Origin: a virus | Taxonomy: Duplodnaviria; Caudoviricetes | IMG/VR virus record: IMGVR_UViG_3300043432_000485 | Location: 32,001 to 96,000 of that record | Length of the DNA: 64,000 nt | Direction: 5' to 3' (one strand) | Shown: piece by piece, positions 709-47,310 of the stretch | Numbering within the stretch: position 1 is the stretch's first letter | How the letters are laid out: the number at the start of each line of letters is the position of its first letter | Translations under genes and position numbers: made by a program | Notes under the pieces: generated by a model | Seen by the model: the letters and a program-made list of their open reading frames with translations, nothing else | Databases searched by the model: none | Told to the model about the DNA's origin: nothing

Positions 709-770
709 AAGTTGCTAACCCATACCAGAGGCTCAACACAAATGGGTAAGTCATCGGTGTAGTAAAGGCA

Positions 771-1109
771 ATGGAAATCGACAAGAGGGACGAGACAATC
801 GCGATCCTCAGGGAAGCTCTGCGGTTCTACGCGGCCCCAGGGAACTACCACGCCATCAGCTTCATGTTCGACCGGCCGTGCGGAGGCTTCGCGGACGACT
901 TCAGCAAGGACCATGGAGACGAGTTCTACCGCCGTAGGATGCCCGGGGCTCTAGCCCGCCGGGTGCTCCGGGAGAGCGACAGCGGGGTACTTTCACCGGT
1001 CCAATGCGAGGCCCACGGAATACCACTCAGGGTCGAGCCTCAGCTCTTCTGTGACAAGTGCACCGAGGAAGCTTTAGGGGACGAGGAAGCGAGCAGCGAC
1101 TCGCTCTGA
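771..1109 (+). CDS. Hypothetical phage protein
   Basis: ATG lies 7 nt after CGGTGTAGT (755-763); C-terminal CxxH...CxxC. Confidence 0.6.
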   Translation: MEIDKRDETIAILREALRFYAAPGNYHAISFMFDRPCGGFADDFSKDHGDEFYRRRMPGALARRVLRESDSGVLSPVQCEAHGIPLRVEPQLFCDKCTEEALGDEEASSDSL

Positions 1110-2111
1110 AGCTGTCTTCTCTTTGGGCTTCTTCTCGGACTCATCGTCCCCGCCCTTCATCTCGTTGAGGATCTTGGTCAGGTCCTCATCCGAGAGGTCC
1201 TCTTCCAAGGTTTTAGCAACGGCTGCCAGGATGAAGTTGGTCATGACCTCTTCCGGGTTCGCGCCCTTCTTACCCTCTTCCGAGGCGAAGTGCTCCATTA
1301 GGTGAGCGATGCCGTGCCCAACGTGGCCTAGCTCGTCCATTACGTGGAGGTGGCCCATGGACTTGTGCACGGATTTAGCCGCGATGTGCCGGGCCAGACC
1401 CTTGGCAAATATACCGGCGGCCCCAAGAGGTCCCGTCGCCGTGAGAGCTGCCGCTGCACCTCCGATAGCCAGATGCGTAGCAACCGCTCTGAAGGCGTGC
1501 TTCTGGTGCTTGGTCATCTTGCCGCCGGATAGCACTGACTTCACGCCAGCCGCTGCATCCTTGAACTCCTTGACCTCATGCTTGGCCGTATCAACCAAGT
1601 TGTCGAGCATCTTCTTGGGGGTCTTGGCTAGGTGAGAACCTGCTTCCTTCAGGGTGTTCTTGCGGAACTCATGATCCCCCAAGAAGCTCTTGATAGCTTT
1701 GGGGGCCGACTTCGCAAATGACTGAGCGGCATCAGACAGCCCCTTCAAGGTGTCCTTCCATGTCTCCAAACGGCCCGGCTTCGCACCCTTGGGGGCCTCA
1801 TGCTCGTCATGATCCCCGTGCTCGTCATGATGGGGCTTCTTAGCTTCTGGCTTCTTAGCTTCTGGCTTTGGAGCCTTGGGCTCTTCCTTCTTGACCTCCG
1901 GCTTGGGTGCTGGAGGCACTTGCTTCTTCTTGGCAGCGTCCGGGATTGGCGGGGGCTGTTTCTTGCCTGGCCCACCCGGCTTCTTTACAGTGTGCTTGGC
2001 CTTATCCGCGTCCGGATGCTCCTTCAGGTATTCCCTGAGAGCTTCGGGAGATGTGAATTCCTTAGCCTGTCGGGTCGCCCTCTGGACAACCCTCTCTGTA
2101 AGACTCGCCAT
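1074..2111 (-). CDS. Lys/Pro/His-rich protein with shared peptide motif at both ends (possible virion internal protein)
   Basis: 345 aa ORF; N-term MASLTERVVQRA, C-term KTASERVAARF; PEAKK repeats. Confidence 0.7.
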   Translation of the reverse strand: MASLTERVVQRATRQAKEFTSPEALREYLKEHPDADKAKHTVKKPGGPGKKQPPPIPDAAKKKQVPPAPKPEVKKEEPKAPKPEAKKPEAKKPHHDEHGDHDEHEAPKGAKPGRLETWKDTLKGLSDAAQSFAKSAPKAIKSFLGDHEFRKNTLKEAGSHLAKTPKKMLDNLVDTAKHEVKEFKDAAAGVKSVLSGGKMTKHQKHAFRAVATHLAIGGAAAALTATGPLGAAGIFAKGLARHIAAKSVHKSMGHLHVMDELGHVGHGIAHLMEHFASEEGKKGANPEEVMTNFILAAVAKTLEEDLSDEDLTKILNEMKGGDDESEKKPKEKTASERVAARFLVP

Positions 2112-2118
2112 GTCTTGG

Positions 2119-2628
2119 CTATTTCATCGAAGGAACCTCGGAACGCTCGCGAGCCCGGATGAACATCAGCATCCTCCCGAGTTTGTTAAGCCCAGTCCCG
2201 TTCTTGCCGGAACCCCAGTAAGCATCTTTGGGGGCGTTCTCGATCAGCTCGACATCCCCGGTGTCGAGCAGTTTACTGCGCAGTTCTCTTCTCTGAGAGA
2301 ACTTGTGCGTCAGACCCATGAACATCATGTGGTCCTTGGTCAGGTCCAGCATGTAGCCATGCTGATCCCGGAACATCTCACGAAGCGCCGGGGTCCCCAC
2401 CTCGTCTTCCCAATCTGGGCGGCATTCAATCTGCCCGCCCCAGCGCTTGGCTATCCCCGGGGTGAGCGCGCTGCGGATCTGCAGTTGCACTGCCGGGTCA
2501 TCGCTCTTCATGCTCTGGTAGAAGTGCTCAACCGAAGGGTACTGAATGCCCTGGACCTCGAAGATTGCCCCGAAGAAGTTGGACAGGTACCCGTTAGGAC
2601 CCCGGTTGCTGTAGAACTTGAGAGTCAT
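2119..2628 (-). CDS. NADAR (YbiA-like) family protein
   Basis: YLSNF...YPSVEHFYQSMK...KFSQ...L..TGD.ELIENAP.DAYWG.G..G.G.N.LG.MLM; ATG overlaps upstream TGA. Confidence 0.85.
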   Translation of the reverse strand: MTLKFYSNRGPNGYLSNFFGAIFEVQGIQYPSVEHFYQSMKSDDPAVQLQIRSALTPGIAKRWGGQIECRPDWEDEVGTPALREMFRDQHGYMLDLTKDHMMFMGLTHKFSQRRELRSKLLDTGDVELIENAPKDAYWGSGKNGTGLNKLGRMLMFIRARERSEVPSMK

Positions 2629-2948
2629 GCCCACACTCGAATCTGGGCATTGGGATTCTCTATGCAAGCCTCTAGAACTCTAGTCACAAAGTCCACCAAC
2701 CCGTCGTAGGTTCCCCACCCATTCTCGGGGTCCATGGCTTTGAACCTCTCTGGTTCTGCCTTGAGTAGCGCGAGTCCCCTCTCTAGAGTCGTGATGGCGT
2801 CACCGGCCAGTTTGAATGCATTCTCGTCCGGGCGCCAAAGTACCTCGTACAATCCTGCCTCCTTGGCCATGCCAGCAAGATTGTGGGTGACGTTACCGCT
2901 GAACACCTGGGTGGGGCGCATCTCTTCGAGGTAGAAATCTAGGCTCAT
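2625..2948 (-). CDS. Conserved phage hypothetical protein (MSLD...NxTHNL...NGWG)
   Basis: Intact ORF with ATGA overlaps on both sides. Confidence 0.7.
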   Translation of the reverse strand: MSLDFYLEEMRPTQVFSGNVTHNLAGMAKEAGLYEVLWRPDENAFKLAGDAITTLERGLALLKAEPERFKAMDPENGWGTYDGLVDFVTRVLEACIENPNAQIRVWA

Positions 2949-3517
2949 GTCCGGCTCTCCTGGGCTGCCCAGTCTGAAGTGAATGGGGTTGGGTCGTTGG
3001 CAAGTAGTCTCAGCTCATTCAGGTACTGAGGGTCCGAAAACTGTCCCACGAACGGAGCCACCGAGAATGGTTTGCTTCGATGGTGAACCGGAATGCTCAC
3101 GGTGGGGGTTCCTTGTGCGCATGGCGGGAAGGTCAGGGTCGCCCCGAGCTTAGCGGTACGAAGCAGGGACAGCAATCCGGGCTCCTCTTCCATACCCTCA
3201 GGCCACCCATGGTCCTTGTATGGCCAGACTCTGCCATCCCAACCCAAATCCTCCAAGAAGAGGCAAACCTGCCGATCACTCTTGGGTGTGATCGGCAAGC
3301 CCATCGTCAGGCCGCCGATCGCCTTGATGCCCCCTTGTTCCAAGACCGTGAGCTGAAGCCCTAGCACGGGCCAGTTGGCTTTGCGTTGCTTGATCCACCC
3401 CAGCAGCGCGAAGGCGTGGTAACGACCCAAAGGGAACTTCCCATGCGAGACTGAAGCGGTGGGTACATCCTGCACCCCCCAAGCCTGGATGTAGTCCTTG
3501 GTTTGTTGATCGGTCAC
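2945..3517 (-). CDS. Hypothetical protein
   Basis: GTG start 7 nt after GGTGTAAT on the minus strand (3525-3532). Confidence 0.65.
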   Translation of the reverse strand: MTDQQTKDYIQAWGVQDVPTASVSHGKFPLGRYHAFALLGWIKQRKANWPVLGLQLTVLEQGGIKAIGGLTMGLPITPKSDRQVCLFLEDLGWDGRVWPYKDHGWPEGMEEEPGLLSLLRTAKLGATLTFPPCAQGTPTVSIPVHHRSKPFSVAPFVGQFSDPQYLNELRLLANDPTPFTSDWAAQESRT

Positions 3518-3833: not shown

Positions 3834-3871
3834 GGTTGTTGATTCCTTGAGAGTTGGCTGTTGGTGATGGC

Positions 3872-6070
3872 TTACTGGCAGGCCTTGGCCCAGCCGATGC
3901 CCTTGTCCCAGACGTTGATGGTGCCGGCGCTGCAGCCGAACTTGATTTCACCGGTGTCACTGCCGCGTTTGCACGCGAGGATTTGGCTGCAGTTGCAGCC
4001 GCCCTTCTGCAGCACTGAGTCACCAACGCTGTTTGGCTTGAGGGACTGAGTTGGAACAGGGCCGGACAGGTTGGTACCCGGGCAGAGGTCCACGTCGTCA
4101 CTCACTCCATCCAGGTCGCTGTCGCTGATGTAGAAGAGCGCCGTATTCTTGAGACCGTTTACGATGAGGGATGTTCCGGCTCCGGTGGAGCGGCACATCG
4201 TGTCTGGGGTGCGCCAAACGATGCAGGCTCCTGGGGCGGGGAGATCCGCCTTCTTGACCTTGACCGCTGTATTGGGGCAAGCACCTTGTGAGTCGATGGT
4301 TGCACCCGGGACGTCGTTGATGCAGAAGTCGCGGTTTGCGTACGGGATCGTGACCGACTTGGTGACACCCGGTGGCAGGGTTGCATTGATAGCGATCGCT
4401 GGCTTGGTGCTGCCCCCGTTACCATCGGACGCGGTCACGGTGATGACCTGAGAACCACCCACGGGTCCGGTACCAGGCGGGAACGTCACTCCGAAGTTTG
4501 AGCCGCCGGGCGTACTGATCGTGGCGGTGGTGGAGCCATCGGGGTTCGGAGTGGTGGTGGAGTTGCCGCCTGAGGTCTGGATGGGGATGCCCTGCACCAG
4601 TGAGCCGTAGCTCAGGACGCGATTGAGAGCATTGTCGACCACGAACAACCGTCCGTAGGTGGCATCCCATGTAACGCTGTTGGGGAACAACATTGATGCG
4701 GCACTTGCCGGCTGGTCCAGCCAGGTGAAGGTGCCGTCCTGGGTGTTTTGACTCACGTGACCACAACCCAGAATCTGATGAACAGGATCTGATCCTGGAT
4801 CAACGGCGCCACCGGTCAAACTCGGGTATCCGAGCACATTGGACGGCGGGAGCCCATTCTGGGTCTTGGTTTGTGCATCTCCGGAGATGTCATAGGAGAC
4901 GACTCGGCAGTTGTAGAAGTCCGCAACGAACAGCCGGCGACCAGCATTGTCCACCGCAGCGGCGGCTGGGGAGTTCAAGTATGGGCCACCACCGTACGTG
5001 ACGGGCAGGGCGTCATAGTTGGGCTGTCCAATGACCCAAGTGGAGGGTGCACCGTTCGCAACCACGGAGGACAGGTTCGCACCCGCCGAGTAACGCCATG
5101 CGCGTACGCCATTTTGGGTCGGAACGTAAAGCGCACCTTCCGTGGGATCCCACGCCGGTTTGCCCGGGAAGTTGATGCCGCACGCGTTGGGGGTGTGCGT
5201 GCCGACTGGGCCTGAACACGGGGCGTCGACTCCGCCTTCAGACACGAGACTCTGTTGTCCGAGGACTTTCACCGCTGCCATGTTGTTCGAAATGCCCGAA
5301 GACAAGTCGAAGAACATCACGCGATTGCCCTCAGCATCGGACACGATGAGGGTCTTGGAGTTCGCCTCGAATGCGAGCCCGAAGGGGGCTAGCGAACAAG
5401 CATTGATGCCAGAGGTGGCAGATCCACTGCAGAAGCGGTTCGGCTCCGTGGTGGTGAAGTCCGACTGACCCAACACGAACACCGAGGTCTCACCGTTGGT
5501 GTTCGTGTCCCCGATGTTGAAAAACAACACGCGGTGCTGCCAGTAGTCACTGACAGCCAGGTACTTCGCAGTACCGAGCTTGATCACCACTACACTGGTT
5601 GGGGAGTACAGGTTGCAAGCGTTAGCCGGACCGGGCCACGGCACATTCGGATCCGTGCTGTTGACGCAACCAACCGCTGGGTTCTGGAAGTTGCGTTCCA
5701 CGCTGGTATACGTGCCTTGGCCGAGCACGAACAGGGTGGGGGCATTGGTTGAGCCGTTGCGGACATCCTTGGCTAGGACCCGCTGGCCCCAGGACTCCAC
5801 GATGTACAGGATGCCGGTCTCAGGGTCGAAGTCCGCATCATTGGGGGCCGTCACCGTCTGGTCACTCGATGGCTGAAGCACCTCGAATGCCTCGATGTCA
5901 GTCAGGGGAACCCCTACCTGTTTCACCGGATGGTTGAGGTCCGGCTGGCCAATGACCCCACCTGCAGGCATCCCGTTGCTCAGAATGAGCTGGGCGGTTG
6001 CACCTGCTGCGATGGCCAACATTGCGCACGTGAACGCAATTGTTGCCGTTTTTGTGAATGGCTTCTTCAT
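3872..6070 (-). CDS. Large secreted NHL-repeat (beta-propeller) protein
   Basis: Signal peptide from MKKPFTK; repeated LxVxD..NRV...VLGQ units; C-terminal DSDLDGVSDDVDLCP. Confidence 0.75.
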   Translation of the reverse strand: MKKPFTKTATIAFTCAMLAIAAGATAQLILSNGMPAGGVIGQPDLNHPVKQVGVPLTDIEAFEVLQPSSDQTVTAPNDADFDPETGILYIVESWGQRVLAKDVRNGSTNAPTLFVLGQGTYTSVERNFQNPAVGCVNSTDPNVPWPGPANACNLYSPTSVVVIKLGTAKYLAVSDYWQHRVLFFNIGDTNTNGETSVFVLGQSDFTTTEPNRFCSGSATSGINACSLAPFGLAFEANSKTLIVSDAEGNRVMFFDLSSGISNNMAAVKVLGQQSLVSEGGVDAPCSGPVGTHTPNACGINFPGKPAWDPTEGALYVPTQNGVRAWRYSAGANLSSVVANGAPSTWVIGQPNYDALPVTYGGGPYLNSPAAAAVDNAGRRLFVADFYNCRVVSYDISGDAQTKTQNGLPPSNVLGYPSLTGGAVDPGSDPVHQILGCGHVSQNTQDGTFTWLDQPASAASMLFPNSVTWDATYGRLFVVDNALNRVLSYGSLVQGIPIQTSGGNSTTTPNPDGSTTATISTPGGSNFGVTFPPGTGPVGGSQVITVTASDGNGGSTKPAIAINATLPPGVTKSVTIPYANRDFCINDVPGATIDSQGACPNTAVKVKKADLPAPGACIVWRTPDTMCRSTGAGTSLIVNGLKNTALFYISDSDLDGVSDDVDLCPGTNLSGPVPTQSLKPNSVGDSVLQKGGCNCSQILACKRGSDTGEIKFGCSAGTINVWDKGIGWAKACQ

Positions 6071-6214
6071 ATGGATTTGCGGCTTCACCCGATGGGTACG
6101 GCAGCCGTTCCGGTGAATGGTTACGAGCATCTAACTACCTGGCCGTTTGGGTTTGGTCAATGGCCTATTCGGCTATTTTGACCCGCCCTGGGGTTTTTCG
6201 GTGTAATGGTGTTC

Positions 6215-6841
6215 ATGCTGATCGATGTGTCGAGAAGACCCGTGCGCCTGATCTTTGAGGAGTGCCCAACCATCATTGTGGTGCGCTCCATGCGAGTTAC
6301 AGGACAGGCTGACGGGCTGCTTCACCAGGACATCTCGTCCATGAACGTGTCTCGTTCTCCAGCGCGAACCAACACACTGGCTCCAAAGGTAGCGTTGCAC
6401 CAGAAGGGGTACGAGTACATCGAGACCATTCTCCCCGGTTCAGAGCAACCCCAGGAGCTTGGCTATCTCGAAAGTGAGGTAGCCCGTACCAGAGAAGCAA
6501 TCAGAAGGGGAGAGGTTAGGATCGCTCCCCCGCGCCCGCGGGTAGCACTGAGCAACGAGCCCTACTATGTGATCTCCGGGCATCAGGATCAGTTCGCAAA
6601 GCAGCTTGGGGTATGGAGGATCAACTTCGTCTCTGGGGCCGGCCCTAAGAGTCAGCGACTGTTGACCCTGTTGGACGAAACGCACGGCACGGTACTGTTC
6701 ACATGCCAGGTCCCTCCGGTATCCACCACAGATGGGATCTTCAAGATCAACACTCCACTGGAGCGCTACATTCGCCGCCCAGATGCAGCCCCTGGGTTGT
6801 GGAAGATGCTGCGGGAAGAGGGCGACGATGAAGTCGACTGA
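6215..6841 (+). CDS. Hypothetical protein
   Basis: ATG 7 nt after CGGTGTAAT (6199-6207); TTGACC at 6178-6183. Confidence 0.65.
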   Translation: MLIDVSRRPVRLIFEECPTIIVVRSMRVTGQADGLLHQDISSMNVSRSPARTNTLAPKVALHQKGYEYIETILPGSEQPQELGYLESEVARTREAIRRGEVRIAPPRPRVALSNEPYYVISGHQDQFAKQLGVWRINFVSGAGPKSQRLLTLLDETHGTVLFTCQVPPVSTTDGIFKINTPLERYIRRPDAAPGLWKMLREEGDDEVD

Positions 6842-7640
6842 CTATAACTGCCGCTGGTATGGAGGTGCCTACGGTAGCTTCAACTATGAGTCCGAATATT
6901 TCACACGTTGGGGAGCCCGTTGGGACTACTCGGCTGTGATCCGTGATTCTGAGGGGCCTAGGGATAGTGCCACCACTGTCATGGGTAGGCTGGACATTGA
7001 CGGGTTCCGTAGCCAGAAGACTAGGCGCTATCGTCCCACTGAATGGTCGGTGAGCTTGGAGTTAGGACACCACAAGCAAGGGGTGGCCACCGGGAAGTGT
7101 CGCTCTCTCCTGCAAGCCATGCGAGATGCCGATGCAGCTCTAACTCAAGACGTGGTAAGCCAGTTCTTGTCCGAGGTGTACTGTCTATCCCCTTTGACCG
7201 AAAGCGTGTATAGGTACGTCCATAAGACCCCTAGCTTGTTTGAACACCTAAGAGCTGGGAGCCCGGCTGAGCTGAAGCGCATCCAACTGCTGAACCCGCG
7301 TAACTGGATTCCTTGGATGTCAGATCTGGGGATTCGAGGGGAATCCAGTTGGGCACTAGGGGGCACGTCCAGCGCGCCCAACACAGGCACCTTCCTAACT
7401 GTCAGCTCTCAGGATGGGAAGCTCCGCGGTAGCATCACCATCCGTGAGAACTGGTCCACCACCTGGCAGTCAGATGAAGGAGTGCAGGAGCTTGCTAGAC
7501 GCCTCGGTTCCTGGACTCACGGATCTGAGTCGAACTCAGATCTTGATAGGGAGACGGGGGCATCGACGAGAACATGTACCGATACTCTTTCGGCACGCCC
7601 TGCAAGATCTCTTCTACATTGTCTTCTCCCCGGGGGTTGA
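6828..7640 (+). CDS. Hypothetical protein
   Basis: Overlaps previous gene end; 3' end overlaps the opposite-strand gene by about 145 nt. Confidence 0.5.
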   Translation: MKSTDYNCRWYGGAYGSFNYESEYFTRWGARWDYSAVIRDSEGPRDSATTVMGRLDIDGFRSQKTRRYRPTEWSVSLELGHHKQGVATGKCRSLLQAMRDADAALTQDVVSQFLSEVYCLSPLTESVYRYVHKTPSLFEHLRAGSPAELKRIQLLNPRNWIPWMSDLGIRGESSWALGGTSSAPNTGTFLTVSSQDGKLRGSITIRENWSTTWQSDEGVQELARRLGSWTHGSESNSDLDRETGASTRTCTDTLSARPARSLLHCLLPGG

Positions 7641-8190
7641 CCAAGAAGCCAACGTAGAGGTTCGACATCTCTTCCAGCATGGGTTGGATCTCGTGACCCC
7701 ACTTCGGGTCCAACAACGTCCGCAGAGAGTCTGTGCCCATGATGATGGTGCACCCCGGAAAGAGTCTGGCTTTCTCCAGGTAGGTGGCTCCTTGATCCAG
7801 GAACAACACATCGCGCTTCCCATGCAACCAATGCAGGCGGTCCAGCATGTCCGACAAAGACAACGGGGGCTTGTGCGGGGCATTGGTTGTGATCTGGAAG
7901 ACTGTGTATTCGTCCCCACAGTGAAAATGACCGTCATGTGCCGGATTGAAAGAGCCCGGGTACAAGACGGGGCTCTTGTCAGTCAGCTCCGCTAGCCTCC
8001 TGCCATCACGGGTGAAGAAAGGTCGGGCCAAGAGGGCCTTGCGGGCGTCGTCCGAGGCATCTACGATCTTGGAATAGCAGTAGCCTGGCAGCTCGGTCTC
8101 GACTCCCGCGGCATGAAGGATCATCATCAACCCGTCGGCGTCGGCGCAGTTACCGTCCCCAACTCTGGCGTCAACCCCTGCCTTGTCCAA
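7495..8190 (-). CDS. Cytidylyltransferase-superfamily nucleotidyltransferase, probably 5'-truncated
   Basis: YPGSFNPAHDGH (HxGH), MGTDS, C-terminal SSTQIR; only a TTG start without a clear RBS. Confidence 0.65.
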   Translation of the reverse strand: MDKAGVDARVGDGNCADADGLMMILHAAGVETELPGYCYSKIVDASDDARKALLARPFFTRDGRRLAELTDKSPVLYPGSFNPAHDGHFHCGDEYTVFQITTNAPHKPPLSLSDMLDRLHWLHGKRDVLFLDQGATYLEKARLFPGCTIIMGTDSLRTLLDPKWGHEIQPMLEEMSNLYVGFLVNPRGEDNVEEILQGVPKEYRYMFSSMPPSPYQDLSSTQIRESRNRGV

Positions 8191-8345
8191 GGTCGTCTCT
8201 GATCTTCTGCGTGCTCTTTCTCGCTGAAGAACTTCATGAACACGTAGGTGACATCACGCCTTTCGCTAGGTCTGGCTTGTGACTTACGTTGTTCTTTTCG
8301 ACGACGTGCGGCTCTTTTGGCTCGCTTTTTTATGGTATTGGACAC
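8127..8345 (-). pseudogene. 5' fragment of a basic protein gene, apparently joined to the nucleotidyltransferase locus
   Basis: GGAGG RBS and GTG start; sequence after ...FFSEKEHAED runs out of frame into the next gene. Confidence 0.4.
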
Positions 8346-8357
8346 TCCTGTCCCTCC

Positions 8358-9110
8358 TCACAGTTCGAAGTTGATTCCACGCCGGGTAGCGCGATCGTAA
8401 GCCTCTTTGTTGAAGCGGTAGAGACGTGCAGCACCACCGGTGCGCCGCTCCTTGACGGTCCCAGTTTCCTCTAAGAAGCCGGCCTTCTTGTTCAAGACAC
8501 GCAGTTTTTTGCGGAAGTTGCTGGGTTCTGGGTAAGGCTTATCAGGGGTCGCCTTACCCAGAATTGCCTGGTAGACCTTGCGGAGCTGTTCCAGCGTGAA
8601 TGTCTCGGGGAGCAGATTGAACCCCACCGGGGCGTAGCGGATCTTGGCCTGCAAGCGCTGCACCGCAGTCCGAAGAATCAGGGCGTGATCGAACGCCACC
8701 GAATCTTTCCCAAAAGACAGCGCCTCCCAAACGTCCACCCACTCGGCGCGGCTCGCGTCGGAACCGGCTTCAGGCTTGTGGTCTTGAGTGCGGACTAACG
8801 CATAGTGCGCCACCGAGAAAACGCGGCCCCGAGGGTCGCGCTCGGGAGCATCAAACGTCCCGAGCTGTTCGAGGTAAGCAACCTCGATGCCCGTCTCCTC
8901 TTGCATCTCGCGGCGCGCTGCTTCGTAAGAGGTCTCGCCCTTGAGGAACTCTATGAAGCCACCGGGGAGCGCCCACTTTCCCTTGAAGGGGTCTTCTGCA
9001 CGCTTGATCAGCACCACCTCCAAGCGCCAATCCGGGGTGAGCCCGAACAGGACACAGTCTACGGTGATGTCCGCTTTGGGGTAGTCGTAGGTGTATTTGG
9101 ATTTGGGCAT
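8358..9110 (-). CDS. nrtR: NrtR-like Nudix hydrolase plus C-terminal winged-helix regulator
   Basis: TVDCVLF, WALPGGF, REMQEETG Nudix box, FDH..I, LPETFTLEQL..VYQAILG, NFRKK, GGAARLYRF. Confidence 0.85.
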   Translation of the reverse strand: MPKSKYTYDYPKADITVDCVLFGLTPDWRLEVVLIKRAEDPFKGKWALPGGFIEFLKGETSYEAARREMQEETGIEVAYLEQLGTFDAPERDPRGRVFSVAHYALVRTQDHKPEAGSDASRAEWVDVWEALSFGKDSVAFDHALILRTAVQRLQAKIRYAPVGFNLLPETFTLEQLRKVYQAILGKATPDKPYPEPSNFRKKLRVLNKKAGFLEETGTVKERRTGGAARLYRFNKEAYDRATRRGINFEL

Positions 9111-9123
9111 CGGTTCTTTCAAT

Positions 9124-9172
9124 GTGGTATCTCTTACCACGTTCGATGAGTGGATTATGGTATCTGGTACCA
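9124..9172. promoter_or_regulatory. Two palindromic operator-like sites (GT-N7-AC core)
   Basis: GTGGTATCTCTTACCAC (9124-9140) and TGGTATCTGGTACCA (9158-9172), both followed by CGTT-containing identical flanks. Confidence 0.7.
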
Positions 9173-9181
9173 CGTTGTCAA
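9154..9181 (-). promoter_or_regulatory. Sigma70-like promoter for the nrtR-like gene
   Basis: Minus strand TTGACA (9181-9176), 16-nt spacer, CATAAT (9159-9154). Confidence 0.55.
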
Positions 9182-9271
9182 CGCGTTTTCTCAACTATCT
9201 TGTAAACGGTTGAAATGTGGCCCATTGCGGGTACTATTGCATATCGGTGTACTAGATGCTACACCGGCCAC

Positions 9272-10189
9272 ATGGGTTGTTTTGACTACAGCTGTGCCAT
9301 CTCTGGGCTGTCCATTGGATCCCAGGATCCCGTGCGCTTCCTGCTACTTACTCAGAACCCTGTCACCGATGAGAAGGGACATCGAGGGTGGAACCCTAAC
9401 TCCTGGTGGGTGCCTCGCTGCTTTCCCGTGCGCGCTCTTTACAGCCACTACGGCACCGTCGAGAACATCGAGCAGGGCGTAGGGTTTGACATCATGTTGG
9501 AGGGGCTCCGCCGGGACATCGTGACCCGGGAAGTCGGGGAGAACGAGTACCATGACGTCCCGGTTTGGCCCGACATGCCGTGGGACAAATTGATGGAGGC
9601 CCTTTGGGAAGAACGGGTCCTGGTCAAGATCGAACCTGCGATTGCGGTCCTCGCGACGATCAAGACCCCGCTTGTCGACTATGCGATGATCAGAGAAGAC
9701 GTGTGGCAGCGCTTGCTCCGCGTTCCCATCATCAACACGTTCACGGACAACACCCTGAGGATCAAGCACTTCCGGAAGGAGATCCGGAAGCTGTACTCAG
9801 AAGCCTTGGCTCACCGAGACGATAGTGTGAGGATCAAGGAGATCATGGACAAGGCGGGACAGCCAGATTTCGATTTCGATCAGGCGTGGGAGGATTTCCA
9901 CCACCCGCTCGCGTCTCTTGGTCTTCAGGTTCAGTTCGTCCCCGGAGTTGAGACTCATTGGCGGCTGCTGGTATCTCGCGGGCTGCCGATCGAGCAGGTT
10001 GAGGGCATCTTGGATTCGATCGCCGAACTCGGCTACTTGACCTGCATGCTGGCCAACCTCGGGCACCAGTGGAGGCCCTCCACCACGTACGGGATGCAAC
10101 ACGGGGACTTCCGTTTTCACACGCAATTCCTGCAGGCACTCGCGCAAGTTGGGAACAAACTTGCCAAGGAGCAAGAACAAAACGATTGA
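9272..10189 (+). CDS. Hypothetical phage protein (MGCF..SC.ISGL.I family)
   Basis: Long intact ORF downstream of CGGTGTACT. Confidence 0.65.
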   Translation: MGCFDYSCAISGLSIGSQDPVRFLLLTQNPVTDEKGHRGWNPNSWWVPRCFPVRALYSHYGTVENIEQGVGFDIMLEGLRRDIVTREVGENEYHDVPVWPDMPWDKLMEALWEERVLVKIEPAIAVLATIKTPLVDYAMIREDVWQRLLRVPIINTFTDNTLRIKHFRKEIRKLYSEALAHRDDSVRIKEIMDKAGQPDFDFDQAWEDFHHPLASLGLQVQFVPGVETHWRLLVSRGLPIEQVEGILDSIAELGYLTCMLANLGHQWRPSTTYGMQHGDFRFHTQFLQALAQVGNKLAKEQEQND

Positions 10190-10231
10190 CCCCCTCCCGA
10201 TCTTAGGTACCATTCATCCAGGAGACAACTC

Positions 10232-10657
10232 ATGCCCGACCAACGCCACGTTCTGCAAACCCTTCTGGAAGATTACGGCCTGCCGACCCGGAGCTACTCG
10301 GGGCGCGGCATGTACGGCAAACCCTGTCTTGGGGTGGAAGCCGGTGACCGGGATCTCCTGAAGGCGGTTTTTGAGATCGGCTTCGAGCTGGGGGAACGCA
10401 CCGGCGAAGATGAAGCGGAGAACAAAGACCGCGACCCGAACTACGCGCTCAAGCAGGAACGTGAGGCCATCACCAAGGCCCTGTCCAGCATGCGCCAAGA
10501 GTCTCTCGGGCTCGGGGTGATCACGTACTTCCCGGGGGTTCCTTTCGTGGAGAATGCGTCGGAGCAAGACTTCGACGGGTGTTCTAACTGTGACCTGCCA
10601 CTCTCCGAATGTGAGTGTTCCAGCTTCAGCATCCGGCTCTGTCGGCGATCGCGTTAG
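10232..10657 (+). CDS. Hypothetical protein (RSYSGRGMYGKxCLG motif)
   Basis: GGAG RBS; motif typical of phage proteins; C-terminal Cys cluster. Confidence 0.65.
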   Translation: MPDQRHVLQTLLEDYGLPTRSYSGRGMYGKPCLGVEAGDRDLLKAVFEIGFELGERTGEDEAENKDRDPNYALKQEREAITKALSSMRQESLGLGVITYFPGVPFVENASEQDFDGCSNCDLPLSECECSSFSIRLCRRSR

Positions 10658-10836
10658 GCATCAGCCTTGTGACGTAGGGACTCGACCCAGAGCTTCTGGT
10701 GCTCTGTCAAGTCCTTCCCATCTCTCAGCTCGGTGGAAAACCCTTCGAACGCAGTCCGCTCCCCCGGCGACAGATTCTTGGAGGCCAACAGCTTCCCGAT
10801 CAGGATCTTGTAGGAGGGCTTCTTCGGTTTGGGCAT
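10654..10836 (-). CDS. Small hypothetical protein
   Basis: ATG 7 nt after GGTGTATG on the minus strand. Confidence 0.6.
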   Translation of the reverse strand: MPKPKKPSYKILIGKLLASKNLSPGERTAFEGFSTELRDGKDLTEHQKLWVESLRHKADA

Positions 10837-10992
10837 CCTGATACATACACCAGTGAAATCGGTCACTTGCCGGTGTAACAGTGACGAAATGTTTCGGCTA
10901 TGAATCTGCGCACCCCATAAGTATTGACAGATGCCCCACTCCGGTGTATTCACAGAGAGCCAGCCTGCAGTCACTAGCAGCAGAGGAACTAC

Positions 10993-11223
10993 ATGATCAT
11001 CGATCACCCAACGATCCGACACGATACGCGTTTTGGCAGTGAATCGGCCAAGATGGTGCAGTGCGACTTTTGCCCCACCACGGCCCCCGTCGGGTTCGAC
11101 ATGCATGAAGCGGTGGACAAGGCGCGCTCGGCCGGGTTCATCACGATCCGCGGGCGGACCGCGATCTCTCCGCGCAAGTGGAGTTGCCCGAAGTGCACCG
11201 TCAGGCGTAACACCGCCTCGTAG
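10993..11223 (+). CDS. Small zinc-finger protein
   Basis: CDFC...CPKC; GAGG RBS. Confidence 0.6.
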   Translation: MIIDHPTIRHDTRFGSESAKMVQCDFCPTTAPVGFDMHEAVDKARSAGFITIRGRTAISPRKWSCPKCTVRRNTAS

Positions 11224-11240: not shown

Positions 11241-11444
11241 ATGTGGCAATTCATGTTCCCATCTAAAGCTCCCCTGGTGGAGGCTGTGGGGCGTCAGTAT
11301 CGACGCAAGCAGGACACCATGACCTAGGAGCTGGTGGCTATCGACACGACGGCTGACACGGTCAAGCTTCGCGGCCCCGGCTACGGCAAGGGCCACATGA
11401 CGATCAGCCGCACCGAGTTTCAAAAGGATTGGGTAGCAGCATGA
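11241..11444 (+). CDS. Small protein with an in-frame TAG at codon 29 (11325-11327)
   Basis: ATG 7 nt after GGTGTAGA; MWQFMFPSKAPLVEAVGRQYRRKQDTMT*ELVAIDTTADTVKLRGPGYGKGHMTISRTEFQKDWVAA; TGA overlaps the coaD ATG. Confidence 0.6.
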
Positions 11445-11977
11445 CCACAGCAGTTTACGCGGGAAGCTTCGACCCTGTTACATTGGGGCATCTGGACTTG
11501 ATCCTCAAGGCCAGCAAGTCGTTTCAAGAGGTCATCGTAGGAGTAGGTGCCAACTCCCAGAAGAAGCAGCCCTTGTTCGATCAAGACGAGCGAATCAAGC
11601 TGGTCCGAGGGGCCTTATCAGAGATTAGTGCCACGAAGTCAGGGCTCCTGAGCAACAGCACTCGGGACCGCATCTATGTGATGCCATTTAATGGCTTGCT
11701 GGTGGACTTCTGCCTAGCACAATCGGCAACCGTGATCGTGCGCGGGCTGCGCGCCGTAAGTGACTTCGAGGTCGAGATGGCTATTGCACATGCCAACAGC
11801 AGCATGTGCCAGCACATCGATACCGTGTTCTTCCCCACCAAGCCCGAGCACTCTTTCGTGTCCAGCTCCACCGTCAAAGAGATCGCCTTCCATCCCAGCA
11901 CCACCGGATGGGCCAGCCTTCACCAATACGTGACCTCCAATGTGTTGGAAGCTCTTCGAGAGAAGAAGTTCAAATGA
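11441..11977 (+). CDS. coaD: Phosphopantetheine adenylyltransferase
   Basis: AVYAGSFDPVTLGHLD, IVRGLRAVSDFEVE, FVSSSTVKEIA. Confidence 0.9.
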   Translation: MTTAVYAGSFDPVTLGHLDLILKASKSFQEVIVGVGANSQKKQPLFDQDERIKLVRGALSEISATKSGLLSNSTRDRIYVMPFNGLLVDFCLAQSATVIVRGLRAVSDFEVEMAIAHANSSMCQHIDTVFFPTKPEHSFVSSSTVKEIAFHPSTTGWASLHQYVTSNVLEALREKKFK

Positions 11978-12234: not shown

Positions 12235-12747
12235 ATGCGAAAACCCATTGTCTATACTGCCGGTCCGCTCGGGTTCTCTGAGGTTGGCCGCGCTTTCCAC
12301 AACGGCACGTTCGTACCCATGCTTGAGCGGCTCGGCTTCGAGGTGCTGGATCCTTGGAAACTGACCCCTGATGAGTTGGTGCGCCCCGTGCTGGACATGC
12401 CGTACGGGCAAGCCAAGAAGAGCACCCTTGAGACCCTCAACATCGTGATCGGGCGGAACAACCGCAATGCGATCCAAGCCTGTGACCTGGTGGTCGCCGT
12501 GCTGGATGGAACCGACGTTGACAGTGGGACCGCGGCAGAGGTCGGCTACGCGGCCGGGCTCAACAAGCCGATCGAGGGCTATCGGGGAGATTTCCGCCGG
12601 GCATCAGACAACGACGGCAGTGTGGTGAACCTGCAGGTCGAGTTCTTCATGATGCATCATTCGTACCATGGTCGGATTGCAACCAACATGAGTGAGCTGG
12701 AAGCCAACCTTCTCGGGTACTTGAGAATGTTCTCGGCTCTGAGGTGA
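12235..12747 (+). CDS. Nucleoside 2-deoxyribosyltransferase / deoxynucleotide N-glycosidase family
   Basis: YTAGPLGFS, CDLVVAVLDG..VDSGTAAEVGYA..LNKP. Confidence 0.85.
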   Translation: MRKPIVYTAGPLGFSEVGRAFHNGTFVPMLERLGFEVLDPWKLTPDELVRPVLDMPYGQAKKSTLETLNIVIGRNNRNAIQACDLVVAVLDGTDVDSGTAAEVGYAAGLNKPIEGYRGDFRRASDNDGSVVNLQVEFFMMHHSYHGRIATNMSELEANLLGYLRMFSALR

Positions 12748-13426: not shown

Positions 13427-14299
13427 ATGGGTAAGACAGCAATCAAGGCTCCTCGCGGCAAGACCAGCTTCCGGCTCGATCCGAACGACCCGCGCCTGCG
13501 TCTCATCGGGCACGACACCAACCACAAGGATGGCGAGCACATCTGCTACCAGGAGCGCGCCCACCTTCCGGTGGATGAGGAGTTCGCGCAGTACATGGCG
13601 GTCCATGGCTGCACCAGCGTCCTCATCGTCTTCCGGGACGGGGACTTCCTGGACATCGTGGTCGGCCGCCGCCGTCTCAAGGCTGCACGCCGCGCCAACG
13701 AGATCCGAGCTGAGCGCGGGCTGGACCCGATCCGCATCGAAGTCCAGGTCTTCGACGGTACGCCCCTCGAAGTTCTGGCCCTCATGATCACCGAGAACTC
13801 GCGGCGTCTCGAACCGCACGCCATTCAGATGGCGCTCGATCTCAACCGCTTCCTCCGCCTGGGGGCGACTCTTACGGAGGCAGCGTTCACGATCGGCAAG
13901 TCCGAGCAGACGGTCACCAACTACATCAGCCTTCTGCGCCTCTCGACTCCGGTGCAGGAAGCGGTTGCCCGCGGTGACCTCGCGGTGTCGGCGGCCATCG
14001 AACTGCTGAGCCTCACACGCGACGAGCAGACGGTCGAGCTGGTGAGCTTGCTGGCAAAGGGCGAGCGCCCGACGGCCGCCAACGTCAACGCGGCGGTCCG
14101 TACCAAGAAGTCCGGTGAGGCGGTTTCCCCCGCGCCCAAGACGCGCACTCTCCGCAAGCTGATCGCAGCGGAGGGCGCCGAGGAAGTGCTCGGGGAGAAC
14201 GGGATCGCGCTCATCCGCTTCGTGCTCGGCGAGCTGCCGGCGCGCAACATCAAGGGCCTGACCGAGCTGCTCCGCAAGGTGGAGAGCAAGAAGGCCTGA
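13427..14299 (+). CDS. ParB/Spo0J-like protein with HTH
   Basis: IVVGRRRLKAA, ITENSRRLEP, IGKSEQTVTNYISLLRL; strongly GC3-biased codons. Confidence 0.75.
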   Translation: MGKTAIKAPRGKTSFRLDPNDPRLRLIGHDTNHKDGEHICYQERAHLPVDEEFAQYMAVHGCTSVLIVFRDGDFLDIVVGRRRLKAARRANEIRAERGLDPIRIEVQVFDGTPLEVLALMITENSRRLEPHAIQMALDLNRFLRLGATLTEAAFTIGKSEQTVTNYISLLRLSTPVQEAVARGDLAVSAAIELLSLTRDEQTVELVSLLAKGERPTAANVNAAVRTKKSGEAVSPAPKTRTLRKLIAAEGAEEVLGENGIALIRFVLGELPARNIKGLTELLRKVESKKA

Positions 14300-27701: not shown

Positions 27702-28523
27702 ATGACCACCATCCTTGTCACGAAGCGGTCTGTGTGGGAGCAGTACAACCGGGAACGGGAGCTGTTCGGCAACATCAGCAAGGCTTCGTTGAAGAGGATG
27801 CATGACAGCCATCTGCGCCATCGAAGGATGGTGGACGAGGTTGCAGGGGAGCTGAAGAGACTCAAGATCAAGTACTGGCTGGTGGAGGGGGCTGACATCT
27901 CCTTCAAGACACAACCCGGGGACGAAGTCGTGTGCGTGGGAGGGGATGGCACCGTGCTATCCTCCAGCCACAACTGCGGCCCCGGGGTGGATCTCATGGC
28001 CATCAACAGTGATCCGTTGTTGAGCAAGGGCCGGCTCTGCAACGCTATCTTCGCAGACGTCCGGCACATTCTCGACAAGAAGCGCAAAGTGACTCTCATA
28101 CCTCGGATGCAGGTAGAGGTCGATGGTCAGGTAGTCAGCAAACGAGTTCTCAATGAGGCCCTGTTCAGTCATACCTGCCCAGCAGCGATGACCCGATTTT
28201 CGGAGGGGAAGACTCGTTATGCGTGCTCGGGGATGTGGGTTGGCACTGGAGCGGGATCAACCGGCGCCATCAAATCGGCTGGCGGTGAGGTGCTTCCCAT
28301 TGGATCCAAGCTACTCCAGGCAGTGATTCGAGAGCCCTTCGATCACCCGGACGGCAAAACCATCTCTACGGTTGACCACAAGTTCAAGTTCACTAGCAAG
28401 ACAGCGGACGCTACCCTCTACCTGGACGGCCCCTTCCTTCGGGTCCCAGTGGGGTTTGATCAGACCATGCGATTCACTCAGTCTCCGGAGCCACTCCGGA
28501 TGATTGGGCCAGAGCCGCAATGA
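27702..28523 (+). CDS. nadK: NAD(+) kinase family protein
   Basis: VGGDGTVL, LNE, GTGAGSTGAIKSAGG, DG motif. Confidence 0.8.
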   Translation: MTTILVTKRSVWEQYNRERELFGNISKASLKRMHDSHLRHRRMVDEVAGELKRLKIKYWLVEGADISFKTQPGDEVVCVGGDGTVLSSSHNCGPGVDLMAINSDPLLSKGRLCNAIFADVRHILDKKRKVTLIPRMQVEVDGQVVSKRVLNEALFSHTCPAAMTRFSEGKTRYACSGMWVGTGAGSTGAIKSAGGEVLPIGSKLLQAVIREPFDHPDGKTISTVDHKFKFTSKTADATLYLDGPFLRVPVGFDQTMRFTQSPEPLRMIGPEPQ

Positions 28524-40302: not shown

Positions 40303-40812
40303 TCAACCGAAGTCGTATACTGTCACTGAAACATCTGAGAGTTGTCGGACGATGATGGGCTCAACAGCATCCCAACTTCCCCCACCGAGACCTGTTCCGA
40401 TCCTGGGCATGAACACAGACGCTCCTAGTTGTTTGGCCAACACTGCCACCTTTCCCAAGCACTTTTCCAGAGCCCCATATCGTATGGGTGGGGTCGAATT
40501 AGGTACCGACGATTGGTGCAAAGCTTGGTTGTTTATCCCATAACCAGACTGTGCAATGCAATTCACTACATGAAGGTTAGGCGCGACTTTAATCGCTTGA
40601 ATGTTCCCAAGTTCGAACGCCTGACCCTCCCAGTACTTCTGGCGGAACCACTGTCGATAGGCTGCTTCAGGTTCAGGCCAACGCTTGGAGATTGCAAGTA
40701 CGAATCCGGCGCCCCATCCATTTTTGTCGTTTGACACGTGTACGAGCAGACCGTGTTGCTCAGGGGTTACACCAGGTCTAGTTGCGTCCCCTTTTTTGTA
40801 CGTGATTGCCAT
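40303..40812 (-). CDS. Macrodomain ADP-ribosylhydrolase (SCO6735/TARG1/DarG-like class)
   Basis: KGDAT, HVSND..GWGAGFVLAISKRWPEPEAAYR, MPRIGTGLGGGSW. Confidence 0.85.
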   Translation of the reverse strand: MAITYKKGDATRPGVTPEQHGLLVHVSNDKNGWGAGFVLAISKRWPEPEAAYRQWFRQKYWEGQAFELGNIQAIKVAPNLHVVNCIAQSGYGINNQALHQSSVPNSTPPIRYGALEKCLGKVAVLAKQLGASVFMPRIGTGLGGGSWDAVEPIIVRQLSDVSVTVYDFG

Positions 40813-41963
40813 GCTGTCACCTTCCTACACCAATCTCTGAATTCTGGTATTGTCAGGGTGCGACGCATGAGATTGATGCGCTTGGACACCCATTGAACGT
40901 TGTCTATAGTGTACCCAAGATTATTGTCGATTCGATCAAGAGAGGCGGTCGTGTTATGTCCGGAACTCGCAGACCCGAAATAAATAGGCTCCAGGGACAG
41001 AGCGCAAACTTTTCCTTGGGACTCAAAAAGTGACCAAGCATCCCCTACAGATAGTTGAAACGGTAATCTTCTCCGGGTAGCACTGTCTATATACCCAGCC
41101 CACAGAGAACCCCTAATCTCTCGGAATCCGGTGAATTGCAAGCAGCCACACGATTGAGTTGTGCCCCTTACGATCGAATCCAAGCGAGCCGTGATCACGA
41201 CCCCACAGGCGCACAATGCTTCCGCATAAAGTGCCGCATAGGGCAAAGCTTGACGAGACACAGATAGGATCTTCAAACGACTAAAAGAGGCTCCAATATA
41301 CTTAGAGTACTTTGGCTCCCTCAAGGGCTGTACTTGAATGCTGTCAAGCACTGAAGCCGTACGAAACTCCACGGGATTGGTCACTTGGGCACATAGAGAA
41401 ATAAAAGCGTCTACCGATAGCTTGTGCCTCATCAAGTTGATTGTCTTGTGCGTCCACTGCAGATTACCGATCTCGTACCCTATAGATGAATCCAACCTAT
41501 CCAGTGAGGCGGTGGTTTCCGACGGCTTCGCCACTCTGCCGAATCCGATCTGTACCCCAGACATCTTACACATACGAGATTGAGACTCATACAAATCCCA
41601 ACCATGCTCTATGGAAATATGGAATGCTAGGCCTCTTCTCTCAGCGTCACGGCGATAACCATACCACACTTTGCCCCGCAGTTCCTTGTAGCCTTGATAC
41701 CCTGCATTACGTTCACCGAGACTCTGTTCACCAGCTCGTTCACGATGATAGCAGCCACAGGATACGGTCTTTCCGTGCCGCAAGGCTGCTGTCTTGACAT
41801 CTTTGGTCGTCCCGCAATCACATCTGCACGTAGCTTTGTAGCTCCAAACTCCAGGGCGGTTACCGGGGATGTGCTTCAAAGACAATATGGTCAATCGACC
41901 GAATTTTACACCAATCAGATATTCTGGTGGCCTGGGTTTACTTCCTTGGCGGGGCATACCCAC
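40767..41963 (-). mobile_element. HNH-like homing endonuclease with tandemly duplicated domain
   Basis: Two copies of SCGC...W..Y...A.RR...F...SLDR.D...GY..GN/DN.QW.....NLMR. Confidence 0.8.
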
Positions 41964-43647: not shown

Positions 43648-44254
43648 GGAGGTTCCTTGTGTGCTGCTGGTCTGACTCCTCGATCGTGAGCTTTCCAGTG
43701 TCGATCTCCTCACCCATCAAGAGGGCCTCTGCTAATGGCATGAGGGAACCGAATACCCCAACTCGCTTCAAGAAGTTGCGGGCTTCCTTGGTATACTGGA
43801 CCACTGTGCTCACGTTAGGAACCATAGGGGTAGTGACTCCTAACCGGTGTGGGTGACATTCAGCTGGATCCCCAGTAGAGAACGTGACCCGGCAATGAAG
43901 GGGGCGGCCATTGTATGCGGTGCATTGGTTGGTAGTGGGATCCAACAGAGGGCAGGGGATGTTGCTCATGAGCCACACCTCAAAACTCAGCCCTGTGGTT
44001 TTGCCGCGGACTTCCTCAGCTCGCTGCCGCACTTGCTTGGACCACTGGCCGTTCTCCACCAGCCAACGATACAGGAGGATCCCCTCCGATATGGTGATCA
44101 GAAATGGGTGGTGACAACAAGCAGAGCACCCGGATTTGCACGACGTCTTTACGTTGGCCTTCTTGAGTCCAATCTCGAACTCTAGGCCAGTCTGGGTCTG
44201 CATCACTTGAGTGTCAGACAGTACCCGTTCCACCAAAATAGGTAAGCGCCTCAT
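43637..44254 (-). CDS. YkgJ family putative Fe-S/Zn-chelating protein
   Basis: CKSGCSACC, CPLL...CTAYNGRPLHCR. Confidence 0.8.
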   Translation of the reverse strand: MRRLPILVERVLSDTQVMQTQTGLEFEIGLKKANVKTSCKSGCSACCHHPFLITISEGILLYRWLVENGQWSKQVRQRAEEVRGKTTGLSFEVWLMSNIPCPLLDPTTNQCTAYNGRPLHCRVTFSTGDPAECHPHRLGVTTPMVPNVSTVVQYTKEARNFLKRVGVFGSLMPLAEALLMGEEIDTGKLTIEESDQQHTRNLHGV

Positions 44255-47089: not shown

Positions 47090-47310
47090 TGGTTACCGGC
47101 CGGCAGACTCTTGATAGCCACCACAGGAAGAGTTTCCATGGCCAGCCGAGCATGCACTTCAAAGAGTGCCACAAGGGCTTTACGGTCTCTCACCACCGGG
47201 GCGCTTCTCCAACCGCAGCTGCAGACGATGCGATCCGCATTGTCATGGTAGTAGAAACCACCATCCCCAAAGGTGCACGGTTGAAAGCTGGTCACTTCGT
47301 GGTTCGACAT
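47086..47310 (-). CDS. Small Zn-binding hypothetical protein
   Basis: ATG 7 nt after CGGTGTAGT; CSCGW...H. Confidence 0.6.
   Translation of the reverse strand: MSNHEVTSFQPCTFGDGGFYYHDNADRIVCSCGWRSAPVVRDRKALVALFEVHARLAMETLPVVAIKSLPAGNQ

Follow-up and report, generated by a model that had tools for sequence, protein, structure and literature searches.

We consider it likely that P0004, a protein encoded in a 64,000-nucleotide stretch of viral DNA (positions 32,001 to 96,000 of IMG/VR record IMGVR_UViG_3300043432_000485; the whole stretch is called the window here), is an NrtR-family repressor that acts through two operators on its own promoter, is probably released by ADP-ribose (ADPR), and heads what was ancestrally an NAD+ operon, part of which has been deleted in this phage, a huge one from freshwater. 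The features on which this reading is built are collected in Table 1, and the relatives are designated by locus (L001 and so on).

Table 1. Features of the nrtR locus in the window, and palindromes upstream of nrtR in distant relatives
Feature	Position or locus	Strand	Basis or remark
nrtR (P0004), 250-aa Nudix + NrtR-type winged helix	8358..9110	-	Pfam, AF2 model, dN/dS
sigma-70-like nrtR promoter, TTGACA 9181-9176 / 16-nt spacer / CATAAT 9159-9154	9154..9181	-	promoter scan
O1, TGGTA-N5-TACCA, predicted operator in -35/-10 spacer	9158..9172		arms kept, centre variable in L001, L003
O2, TGGTA-N5-TACCA, predicted operator in leader, about +9 to +23	9125..9139		33-bp spacing kept in L001, L003, L022
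72-aa basic orphan ORF (P0003), GTG start 13 nt past nrtR stop	8127..8345	-	ORF call; no homologue in fetched loci
5'-truncated CinA-like/NadD-like (NMNAT-like) gene, 210 aa from ATG 8127 (P0125)	7495..8127	-	HxGH + SSTxxR intact
Divergent neighbour, DUF8385 / phrog_5960	9272..10189	+	next to nrtR also in L001, L003
NADAR-domain gene, same syntenic NAD/ADP-ribose island, separate transcription unit	2119..2667	-	Pfam NADAR 4.2e-27; synteny L001, L022
GTGT-N7-ACAC	L022, L023, L024, L026		upstream of nrtR
GAGTC-N5-GACTC	L002		upstream of nrtR
TGGT-N7-ACCA, three overlapping copies	L035		upstream of nrtR
GGTCAC-N-GTGACC	L033		upstream of nrtR

A Nudix and winged-helix protein of the NrtR family

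P0004 joins an N-terminal Nudix-fold domain to a C-terminal NrtR-type winged helix, as the original prediction, made from the letters of the window, had said: Pfam NUDIX matches residues 31-134 (2.7e-20) and NrtR_WHD residues 163-233 (5.7e-16), and an AlphaFold (AF2) model derived from 27 homologues, with a mean pLDDT of 89, has this architecture too. The top fold matches of the model are full-length BtAraR, the E. faecalis protein 2fml and the SoNrtR-DNA complex 3gz6, with the Nudix domain of ADPR-bound SoNrtR (3gz8) and NadQ also matched. Among PDB sequences, the best match is Bacteroides AraR (5bs6, 1.7e-37), and the others include the Enterococcus NrtR-like protein 2fml and Shewanella NrtR (3gz5, 8e-25). 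That the best match is an arabinose sensor rather than an ADPR sensor is, as far as sequence similarity can tell, a point against our main reading. With the NCBIfam equivalog model NF050029 ('ADPR responsive transcriptional repressor NtrR'), P0004 scores 152 bits over its whole length, below the 400-bit cut-off, and it would appear to be a family-level relative of the curated NtrR set and no equivalog.

The start of the gene at ATG 9110 is supported by homologues, and its reading frame ends at 8358 on the minus strand; a mechanical ORF call at TTG 9194 was discarded, because from there the frame would cross the promoter. Compared with the genes of L001 and L003, nrtR has a dS of 0.77-0.93 and a dN/dS of 0.08-0.09, and with a dN/dS of 0.08 it is under strong purifying selection. 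A 341-kb contig is on record that encodes the identical protein. P0004 also carries a six-residue insertion, PDKPYP (codons 191-196, window 8523-8540), in the loop that immediately precedes the recognition helix. The insertion is unique to P0004 in that all 26 viral relatives compared lack it, and it might impair DNA binding.

Two predicted operators on the nrtR promoter

Upstream of nrtR lie two 19-nt repeats (9125-9143 and 9158-9176) that are identical at 17 of 19 bases, start 33 bp apart, and each contain the palindrome TGGTA-N5-TACCA, and with it a GT-N7-AC core. The promoter matches consensus at 11 of its 12 hexamer positions; O1 fills the spacer and overlaps the -10 hexamer by 2 nt, and the nrtR ATG stands at about +38 from the predicted transcription start. 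The original prediction thus described the locus well, both in its pair of near-identical, GT-N7-AC palindromic repeats 33 bp apart and in placing one of them in the spacer of a TTGACA-16-CATAAT promoter and the other in the leader. Operators of the NrtR family are 21-bp palindromes with a GT-N7-AC core, placed in tandem upstream of Shewanella prs-nadV, from which ADPR releases the repressor (PMC2330246), and O1 and O2 are palindromes of this kind, with a GT-N7-AC core, upstream of their presumed target.

How specific is the motif to this promoter? A genome scan for TGGTA-N5-TACCA, which had been suggested with the prediction, finds exactly two copies in the whole 203,362-bp record, both upstream of nrtR, where ~0.2 would be expected. 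Copies with one mismatch occur at eight sites in the genome, and beside none of the eight did we find an NAD-related gene. Five of these boxes lie in the window (713-727, 6477-6491, 43789-43803, 47246-47260 and 47955-47969), where shuffles predict ~0.6 matches, exact or not. The box at 713-727, the sole intergenic copy in the window, sits 5 nt upstream of a minus-strand gene (43-708) of the same syntenic island, with its GT core broken; the box at 47246 falls inside a small ORF, and the remaining ones are in coding sequence. Despite their excess over shuffles in the window, the one-mismatch boxes are probably due to chance.

An (A)ATAGTT element is present ~10-17 nt upstream of the -35 hexamer (window 9192-9199, where the minus strand reads ATAGTTG) and also in L001, L003 and L022, i.e. 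relatives with as little as 61% protein identity still have it. An UP-like element is one possibility, part of the divergent promoter another.

Comparative tests of the operators

The comparison of relatives supports the view that the palindromes behave as NrtR operators. In the aligned promoter region of three close relatives (dS ~0.8-0.9), 19 of 20 arm positions are invariant, as against 1 of 10 centre positions (Fisher p = 7e-6). Both promoter hexamers are likewise invariant in L001 and L003, and the DNA farther upstream of the promoter aligns poorly with that of these two loci. L001, L003 and L022 all have one palindrome in the spacer and one in the leader, 33 bp apart as in the window. 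More distant relatives have other palindromes at the same place upstream of nrtR, all with the GT-N7-AC core (Table 1), and within each ~10-kb relative locus, matching palindromes are found almost only within 100 bp upstream of nrtR. Conservation of the palindromes in relatives that carry the gene, which the original prediction had named as a point to look at, is seen in two forms: invariant arms at close range and GT-N7-AC replacements at longer range.

Additionally, the half-sites covary with the recognition helix of the protein. A helix that starts x-S-N-F-R (window, L001, L003, L033 and L035) pairs with half-sites of the GGT-N7-ACC type, and one that starts K-R-N-F-R (L022, L024 and L026) pairs with GTGT-N7-ACAC half-sites. 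The corresponding helix of BtAraR reads D-K-R-N-F-R-K, and the crystal structure has these residues defining the GTGT motif (PMC4666351).

Tandem TGGTA-N5-TACCA pairs also turned up at 18 loci elsewhere in viral contigs and were rejected as NrtR sites: none of the 18 is near an NrtR gene, and we take them for unrelated repeat arrays on that account.

Viral relatives and the loss of Nampt

A single-protein search of viral contigs with P0004 returned no match, and the relatives were found with an alignment query; a megablast of window 7000-11000 against GenBank phages also returned no match. The relatives include L001 and L003, whose NrtR proteins are 87-88% identical to P0004, and L002 and L022, at 61-65%. 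In a tree of 91 NrtR proteins, the window protein falls inside a clade (SH-aLRT 97, starred in the tree) of 15 sequences, all from viral or putatively viral contigs, and its cellular relatives (Pirellulaceae, Bacteroidota, Myxococcota, Verrucomicrobiota) are at most 49% identical and not Nampt-linked; by this tree, P0004 belongs to a virus-only NrtR clade.

Nampt (NAMPT_N plus NAPRTase) lies directly behind nrtR in 15 viral relatives; next to the four loci just named, about a dozen IMG/VR contigs (40-510 kb) have Nampt immediately after nrtR on the same strand. [quoted passage not shown] Nampt and NMNAT-like genes, which the prediction had proposed to look for in relatives, are thus both present there, directly behind nrtR. 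Two-domain genes of this CinA/NadD-like kind are found at L001:6110-7192, L002:8123-9190 and L022:7450-8580, with folds that match CinA proteins and NaMN adenylyltransferases, and the fusion raises the question of whether the NAD route passes through NaMN.

Thirteen of the 15 clade members are Nampt-linked, among them all five of P0004's nearest relatives. Since P0004 is nested among Nampt-linked NrtR proteins, the absence of Nampt here is a secondary loss. In the 203-kb record, Nampt is found neither by a PF04095 match nor by tblastn with the relatives' Nampt; the record, an IMG/VR virus record of class 'provirus' with a CheckV completeness of 43%, is perhaps incomplete, so that Nampt could lie elsewhere in this genome.

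In the close relative L001, an HNH-endonuclease-like ORF (3850-4602) is found between nrtR and Nampt; four matches in the window are paralogous to it (40812-41954, 48165-48797 and 53131-53787). HNH endonuclease genes are found close to the nrtR island, and mobile endonucleases may drive the turnover of such islands, including the deletion seen here.

Downstream genes in this phage

The gap left by the lost Nampt region is occupied by P0003, whose GTG start is preceded by a strong Shine-Dalgarno sequence (GAGGAGGG) and whose TGA overlaps the next ATG at 8127 (TGATG); no homologue of it was found in any of the fetched relative loci. The gene that begins at this ATG is the HxGH nucleotidyltransferase that had been predicted downstream of nrtR, and it is indeed recognizable as such by its motifs PGSFNPAHDGH and SSTQIR and by weak profile matches to Pfam CTP_transf_like and nadD, as a 5'-truncated copy. 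It aligns only from residue ~107-122 of the full-length relatives, with the first ~107 codons missing; homology to the relatives extends to about 8247, which gives a remnant of 7495-8247. A frameshift joining the P0003 ORF to the truncated gene was ruled out by the spacing. The TGATG stop-start overlap suggests that the truncated adenylyltransferase gene is still translated.

These losses bear on the proposal, also part of the original prediction, that nrtR controls a counter-defence operon, which finds no support in this phage, where the operon is degraded: Nampt is not found in the record, and the adenylyltransferase lacks ~107 N-terminal codons. nrtR is linked to NAD metabolism genes, by the NadD-like gene downstream of it here and by the Nampt behind it in the 15 viral relatives. 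In this phage, the metabolic output of the switch is doubtful because Nampt is absent from the record.

The deletion junction is present in a 66-kb Logan contig of the probable source run, which spans 7300-9400 with no differences at a depth of 18; this agreement means that the junction occurs in more than a single assembly. In other samples, contigs cover short pieces only, none of them bridging the junction, which is bridged by the probable source run alone. Among the sequencing runs listed for this DNA, none is an RNA run.

Effector, catalysis and alternative readings

Which ligand would release P0004? The ADPR contacts of SoNrtR (R41, N43, K76 and R98) were taken from Chang et al. 2015 (PMC4666351) and aligned to P0004 in HMMER alignments. 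Arg41 and Arg98 correspond to R37 and R94, both invariant in the viral clade; Asn43 and Lys76 correspond to E39 and E72, i.e. two phosphate contacts are changed, both to Glu, and E72 is part of the intact catalytic motif. In AraR, a Gly (Gly89) at the position of the second Arg closes the nucleotide cleft (PMC4666351), and P0004, with Arg94 there, does not share this closed cleft of Bacteroidetes AraR. A domain search of the neighbourhood found no sugar genes near nrtR that would resemble the ara linkage of AraR. With the family and the pocket residues as a guide, ADPR would be the most likely effector.

The catalytic part of the Nudix motif is intact in P0004 (E59-x7-R67-E68-M-Q-E71-E72-T-G74-I), and E-x7-RE-x2-EE-x-G is kept in all viral relatives; compared with the signature G-x5-E-x7-REUxEExGU, the first Gly of P0004 is displaced by two residues (GG-x7-E), as in SoNrtR. 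An intact Nudix signature goes with high ADPR pyrophosphatase activity in NuhA, and SoNrtR and Slr1690 are inactive (Rodionov et al., PMC2330246). Given the intact motif and this correlation in the family, phage NrtR may both sense and hydrolyse ADPR. One could go further and see P0004 chiefly as a working ADP-ribose pyrophosphatase of the Synechococcus NuhA kind, which clears ADPR or a related nucleotide during infection; its winged helix and operators would then do no more than set its amount, and defence would switch no pathway. We regard this as unlikely. It would agree with the retention of the motif in every viral relative, with the correlation of signature and activity (PMC2330246), and with the little else that is left in this phage's operon. 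In the relatives, however, Nampt and the adenylyltransferase stand behind the same set of promoter and operators, so that more is controlled than the enzyme's own level, and the displaced Gly is a trait of the inactive SoNrtR. Moreover, an enzyme that destroys its own inducer is compatible with our main reading.

The ligand might also be something other than ADPR, for example NAD+ as a co-repressor (as for Corynebacterium NdnR), NMN, NaAD, an ADPR-derived defence signal or, as for AraR, a sugar. Effectors do vary within the family, with ADPR, NAD and L-arabinose all represented (PMC4666351), AraR is the closest solved relative by sequence, and two of the four polar ADPR contacts of SoNrtR differ in P0004; yet R94, a Gly in AraR, is present and invariant in the clade, and the genes around nrtR concern NAD salvage and not sugar use, which together make a different ligand quite improbable in our view. 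More improbable still is that the locus is a decaying remnant, its switch functionless since the loss of Nampt and its palindromes persisting because the loss is recent. The missing Nampt, the truncated partner gene, the orphan ORF in the gap and the unique insertion adjoining the recognition helix are what one would expect of decay, but promoter, operators and reading frame are all intact, the TGATG overlap suggests that the truncated gene is still translated, and the dN/dS of the window nrtR is as low as that between two intact relatives (0.08-0.09), although a pairwise dN/dS averages the whole time since divergence and a recent relaxation of nrtR is possible.

A proposed switch

The family fold, the operators with their conservation and covariation, the promoter consensus, the synteny and the secondary loss are all observed; we infer that P0004 would bind DNA, would respond to ADPR and may have a role against NAD+-depleting defence. 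As a dimer (by homology), it would bind O1 and O2 on its own strong, host-type promoter; from O1, in the -35/-10 spacer, it would block the binding of RNA polymerase, and O2 would lie in the early transcribed leader. Predicted operators on its own promoter imply that the operon would be autoregulated. Naked phage DNA would enter the cell without repressor and the operon would fire at once; NrtR would then accumulate and shut the operon off, unless the Nudix domain carried its effector. In other words, ADPR, rising upon NAD+ cleavage, would keep the operon open. In the ancestral operon, which the relatives have kept, the switch would drive nrtR, nampt and the CinA-like/NadD-like adenylyltransferase gene, a NAD+ rebuilding set of the NARP2 type. 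In this phage, Nampt and the 5' part of the adenylyltransferase gene were lost by a deletion, and the switch would now control just nrtR, the 72-aa orphan ORF and the truncated NadD-like domain. In a lysogen, should the element be a true provirus, the repressor would instead be active all the time.

For huge phages more broadly, we put forward a more speculative idea, which we hold to be possible but rather doubtful: that a virus-specific NrtR senses immune activation, with ADPR from NAD+-cleaving defences (Thoeris, SIR2, DSR and the like) keeping the costly, PRPP-consuming Nampt/adenylyltransferase pathway on only during NAD+ destruction, and an active Nudix domain resetting the switch. Such a switch would amount to an inducible counter-defence.

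Relation to known systems

In bacteria, NrtR regulons of nicotinamide salvage include S. oneidensis nrtR-prs-nadV and Synechocystis nadM-nadV (Rodionov et al. 2008, PMC2330246; 3GZ5/3GZ6/3GZ8), and NrtR control of nadV is classic (PMC2330246). The phage system shares with them a Nudix and winged-helix repressor, tandem GT-N7-AC palindromes, the equivalents of Arg41 and Arg98 and, in the relatives, nadV (Nampt) and an NMN adenylyltransferase-like gene among the targets. Unlike them, it is carried by huge phages, its NrtR forms a virus-only clade at no more than 49% identity to cellular proteins, and its nrtR is first in the operon and, by our reading, autoregulated; it also has intact Nudix catalytic residues, is without prs, and in the present case has lost Nampt. 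We see it as a phage-borne addition to the known NrtR/nadV regulon type, of which the copy here is partly dismantled.

Among the regulators of this family, B. thetaiotaomicron AraR (5BS6; Chang et al. 2015, PMC4666351) resembles P0004 in its helix framework D-x-x-N-F-R-K and its tandem operators and is its best sequence and fold match, but AraR senses L-arabinose and has a closed cleft (Gly89) and a degenerate Nudix box, whereas in P0004 an Arg takes the place of that Gly, RE-x2-EE is intact, and the surrounding genes are NAD genes. M. smegmatis NrtR (Gao et al. 2019, PMC6800001), an auto-repressor released by ADPR, likewise has a palindrome at its own promoter; it differs from P0004 in controlling de novo nadABC from a 23-bp site of another sequence and in having an inactive Nudix motif (PMC6800001).

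NARP2 comprises Nampt and Nmnat of Vibrio phage KVP40 (Osterman et al. 2024, bioRxiv 10.1101/2024.02.11.579819). As described, it lacks a regulator, and NAD+ rises also where no defence system is present (bioRxiv 10.1101/2024.02.11.579819); it is costly because PRPP is consumed and NAD+ overproduced (bioRxiv 10.1101/2024.02.11.579819). The relatives' operon is like it in uniting Nampt with an NMN/NaMN-adenylyltransferase-like gene, and unlike it in that a repressor fronts the genes and the adenylyltransferase is a CinA-like/NadD-like fusion, that of KVP40 being NadM-Nudix. With Nampt absent from its record, the present phage has no NARP2.

Our literature search found no published description of a phage-encoded NrtR or of a NARP2 regulator, and the Nudix-HTH factors treated by Iyer et al. 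2022 are all from host systems. Full-length homologues of P0004 do exist in GenBank phages, where they are annotated merely as NUDIX hydrolases: gp273 of Bacillus phage G (MutT/NUDIX hydrolase; 35% identity over 91% coverage) and a protein of the 636-kb uncultured phage LR756504. In Bacillus phage G (L136, NC_023719.1 200123-204125), gp273 heads the same-strand genes gp275 (isochorismatase, PncA-like) and gp277 (nicotinate phosphoribosyltransferase), and an NAD salvage operon headed by NrtR may thus exist in a phage that is in culture. A quick look upstream of gp273 and of the LR756504 homologue gave no convincing GT-N7-AC palindrome.

Phage NAD+ reconstitution (NARP1 and NARP2) has so far been described in terms of enzyme sets without regulators. 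If our reading is right, an ADPR-responsive repressor in front of Nampt would remove the cost of NARP2 and would be a clear case of a phage sensing a metabolic signature of host immunity. The comparative data supply concrete predicted operators and a helix-to-half-site code, and gp273-gp277 of phage G offer a cultured system. For the present phage, the message is more modest: a well-preserved switch stands before a partly deleted operon, and such islands turn over quickly.

Neighbourhood and record

The phage nature of the record is based on its IMG/VR class and on PHROG matches. The window has the content of a large phage (several HNH endonucleases, a phrog_17 DNA polymerase, thymidylate synthase and phage ATPase families), and Pfam Terminase_6N and Phage_sheath_1 have no match in the record.

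On the nrtR side, the syntenic island contains the NADAR-domain gene (Table 1), and the islands also share a 190-aa protein, whose window copy is at 2945-3517. The island gene at window 1074-2111 has an L001 homologue with a weak ART-PolyVal hint. A 752-aa NHL-repeat protein (3872-6130, minus strand) is encoded between homologues (6206-6841 and 2945-3517) of two genes that are adjacent in L001, and its gene seems to have been inserted there.

On the divergent side, the DUF8385 protein starts with MGCFDY or MGCFNY in all three close relatives, and the conserved Cys directly behind the start resembles that of an N-terminal-nucleophile hydrolase. A scan match to a divergent promoter for its gene (TTGAAA-16-TACTAT) was rejected, as it is not conserved in L001 or L003. 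Well beyond, a 273-aa ORF (27702-28523, plus strand) has a sub-threshold match to the N-terminal domain of NAD kinase (19 bits in the genome search, 16.8 bits in hmmscan) and may be another NAD-related gene. Between the two, all on the plus strand, are genes for a CoaD-like cytidylyltransferase (11429-11977), a nucleoside 2-deoxyribosyltransferase (12235-12747) and a ParB-HTH protein (13427-14299), of which the CoaD-like gene is syntenic with L001, L022, L027, L029 and L034.
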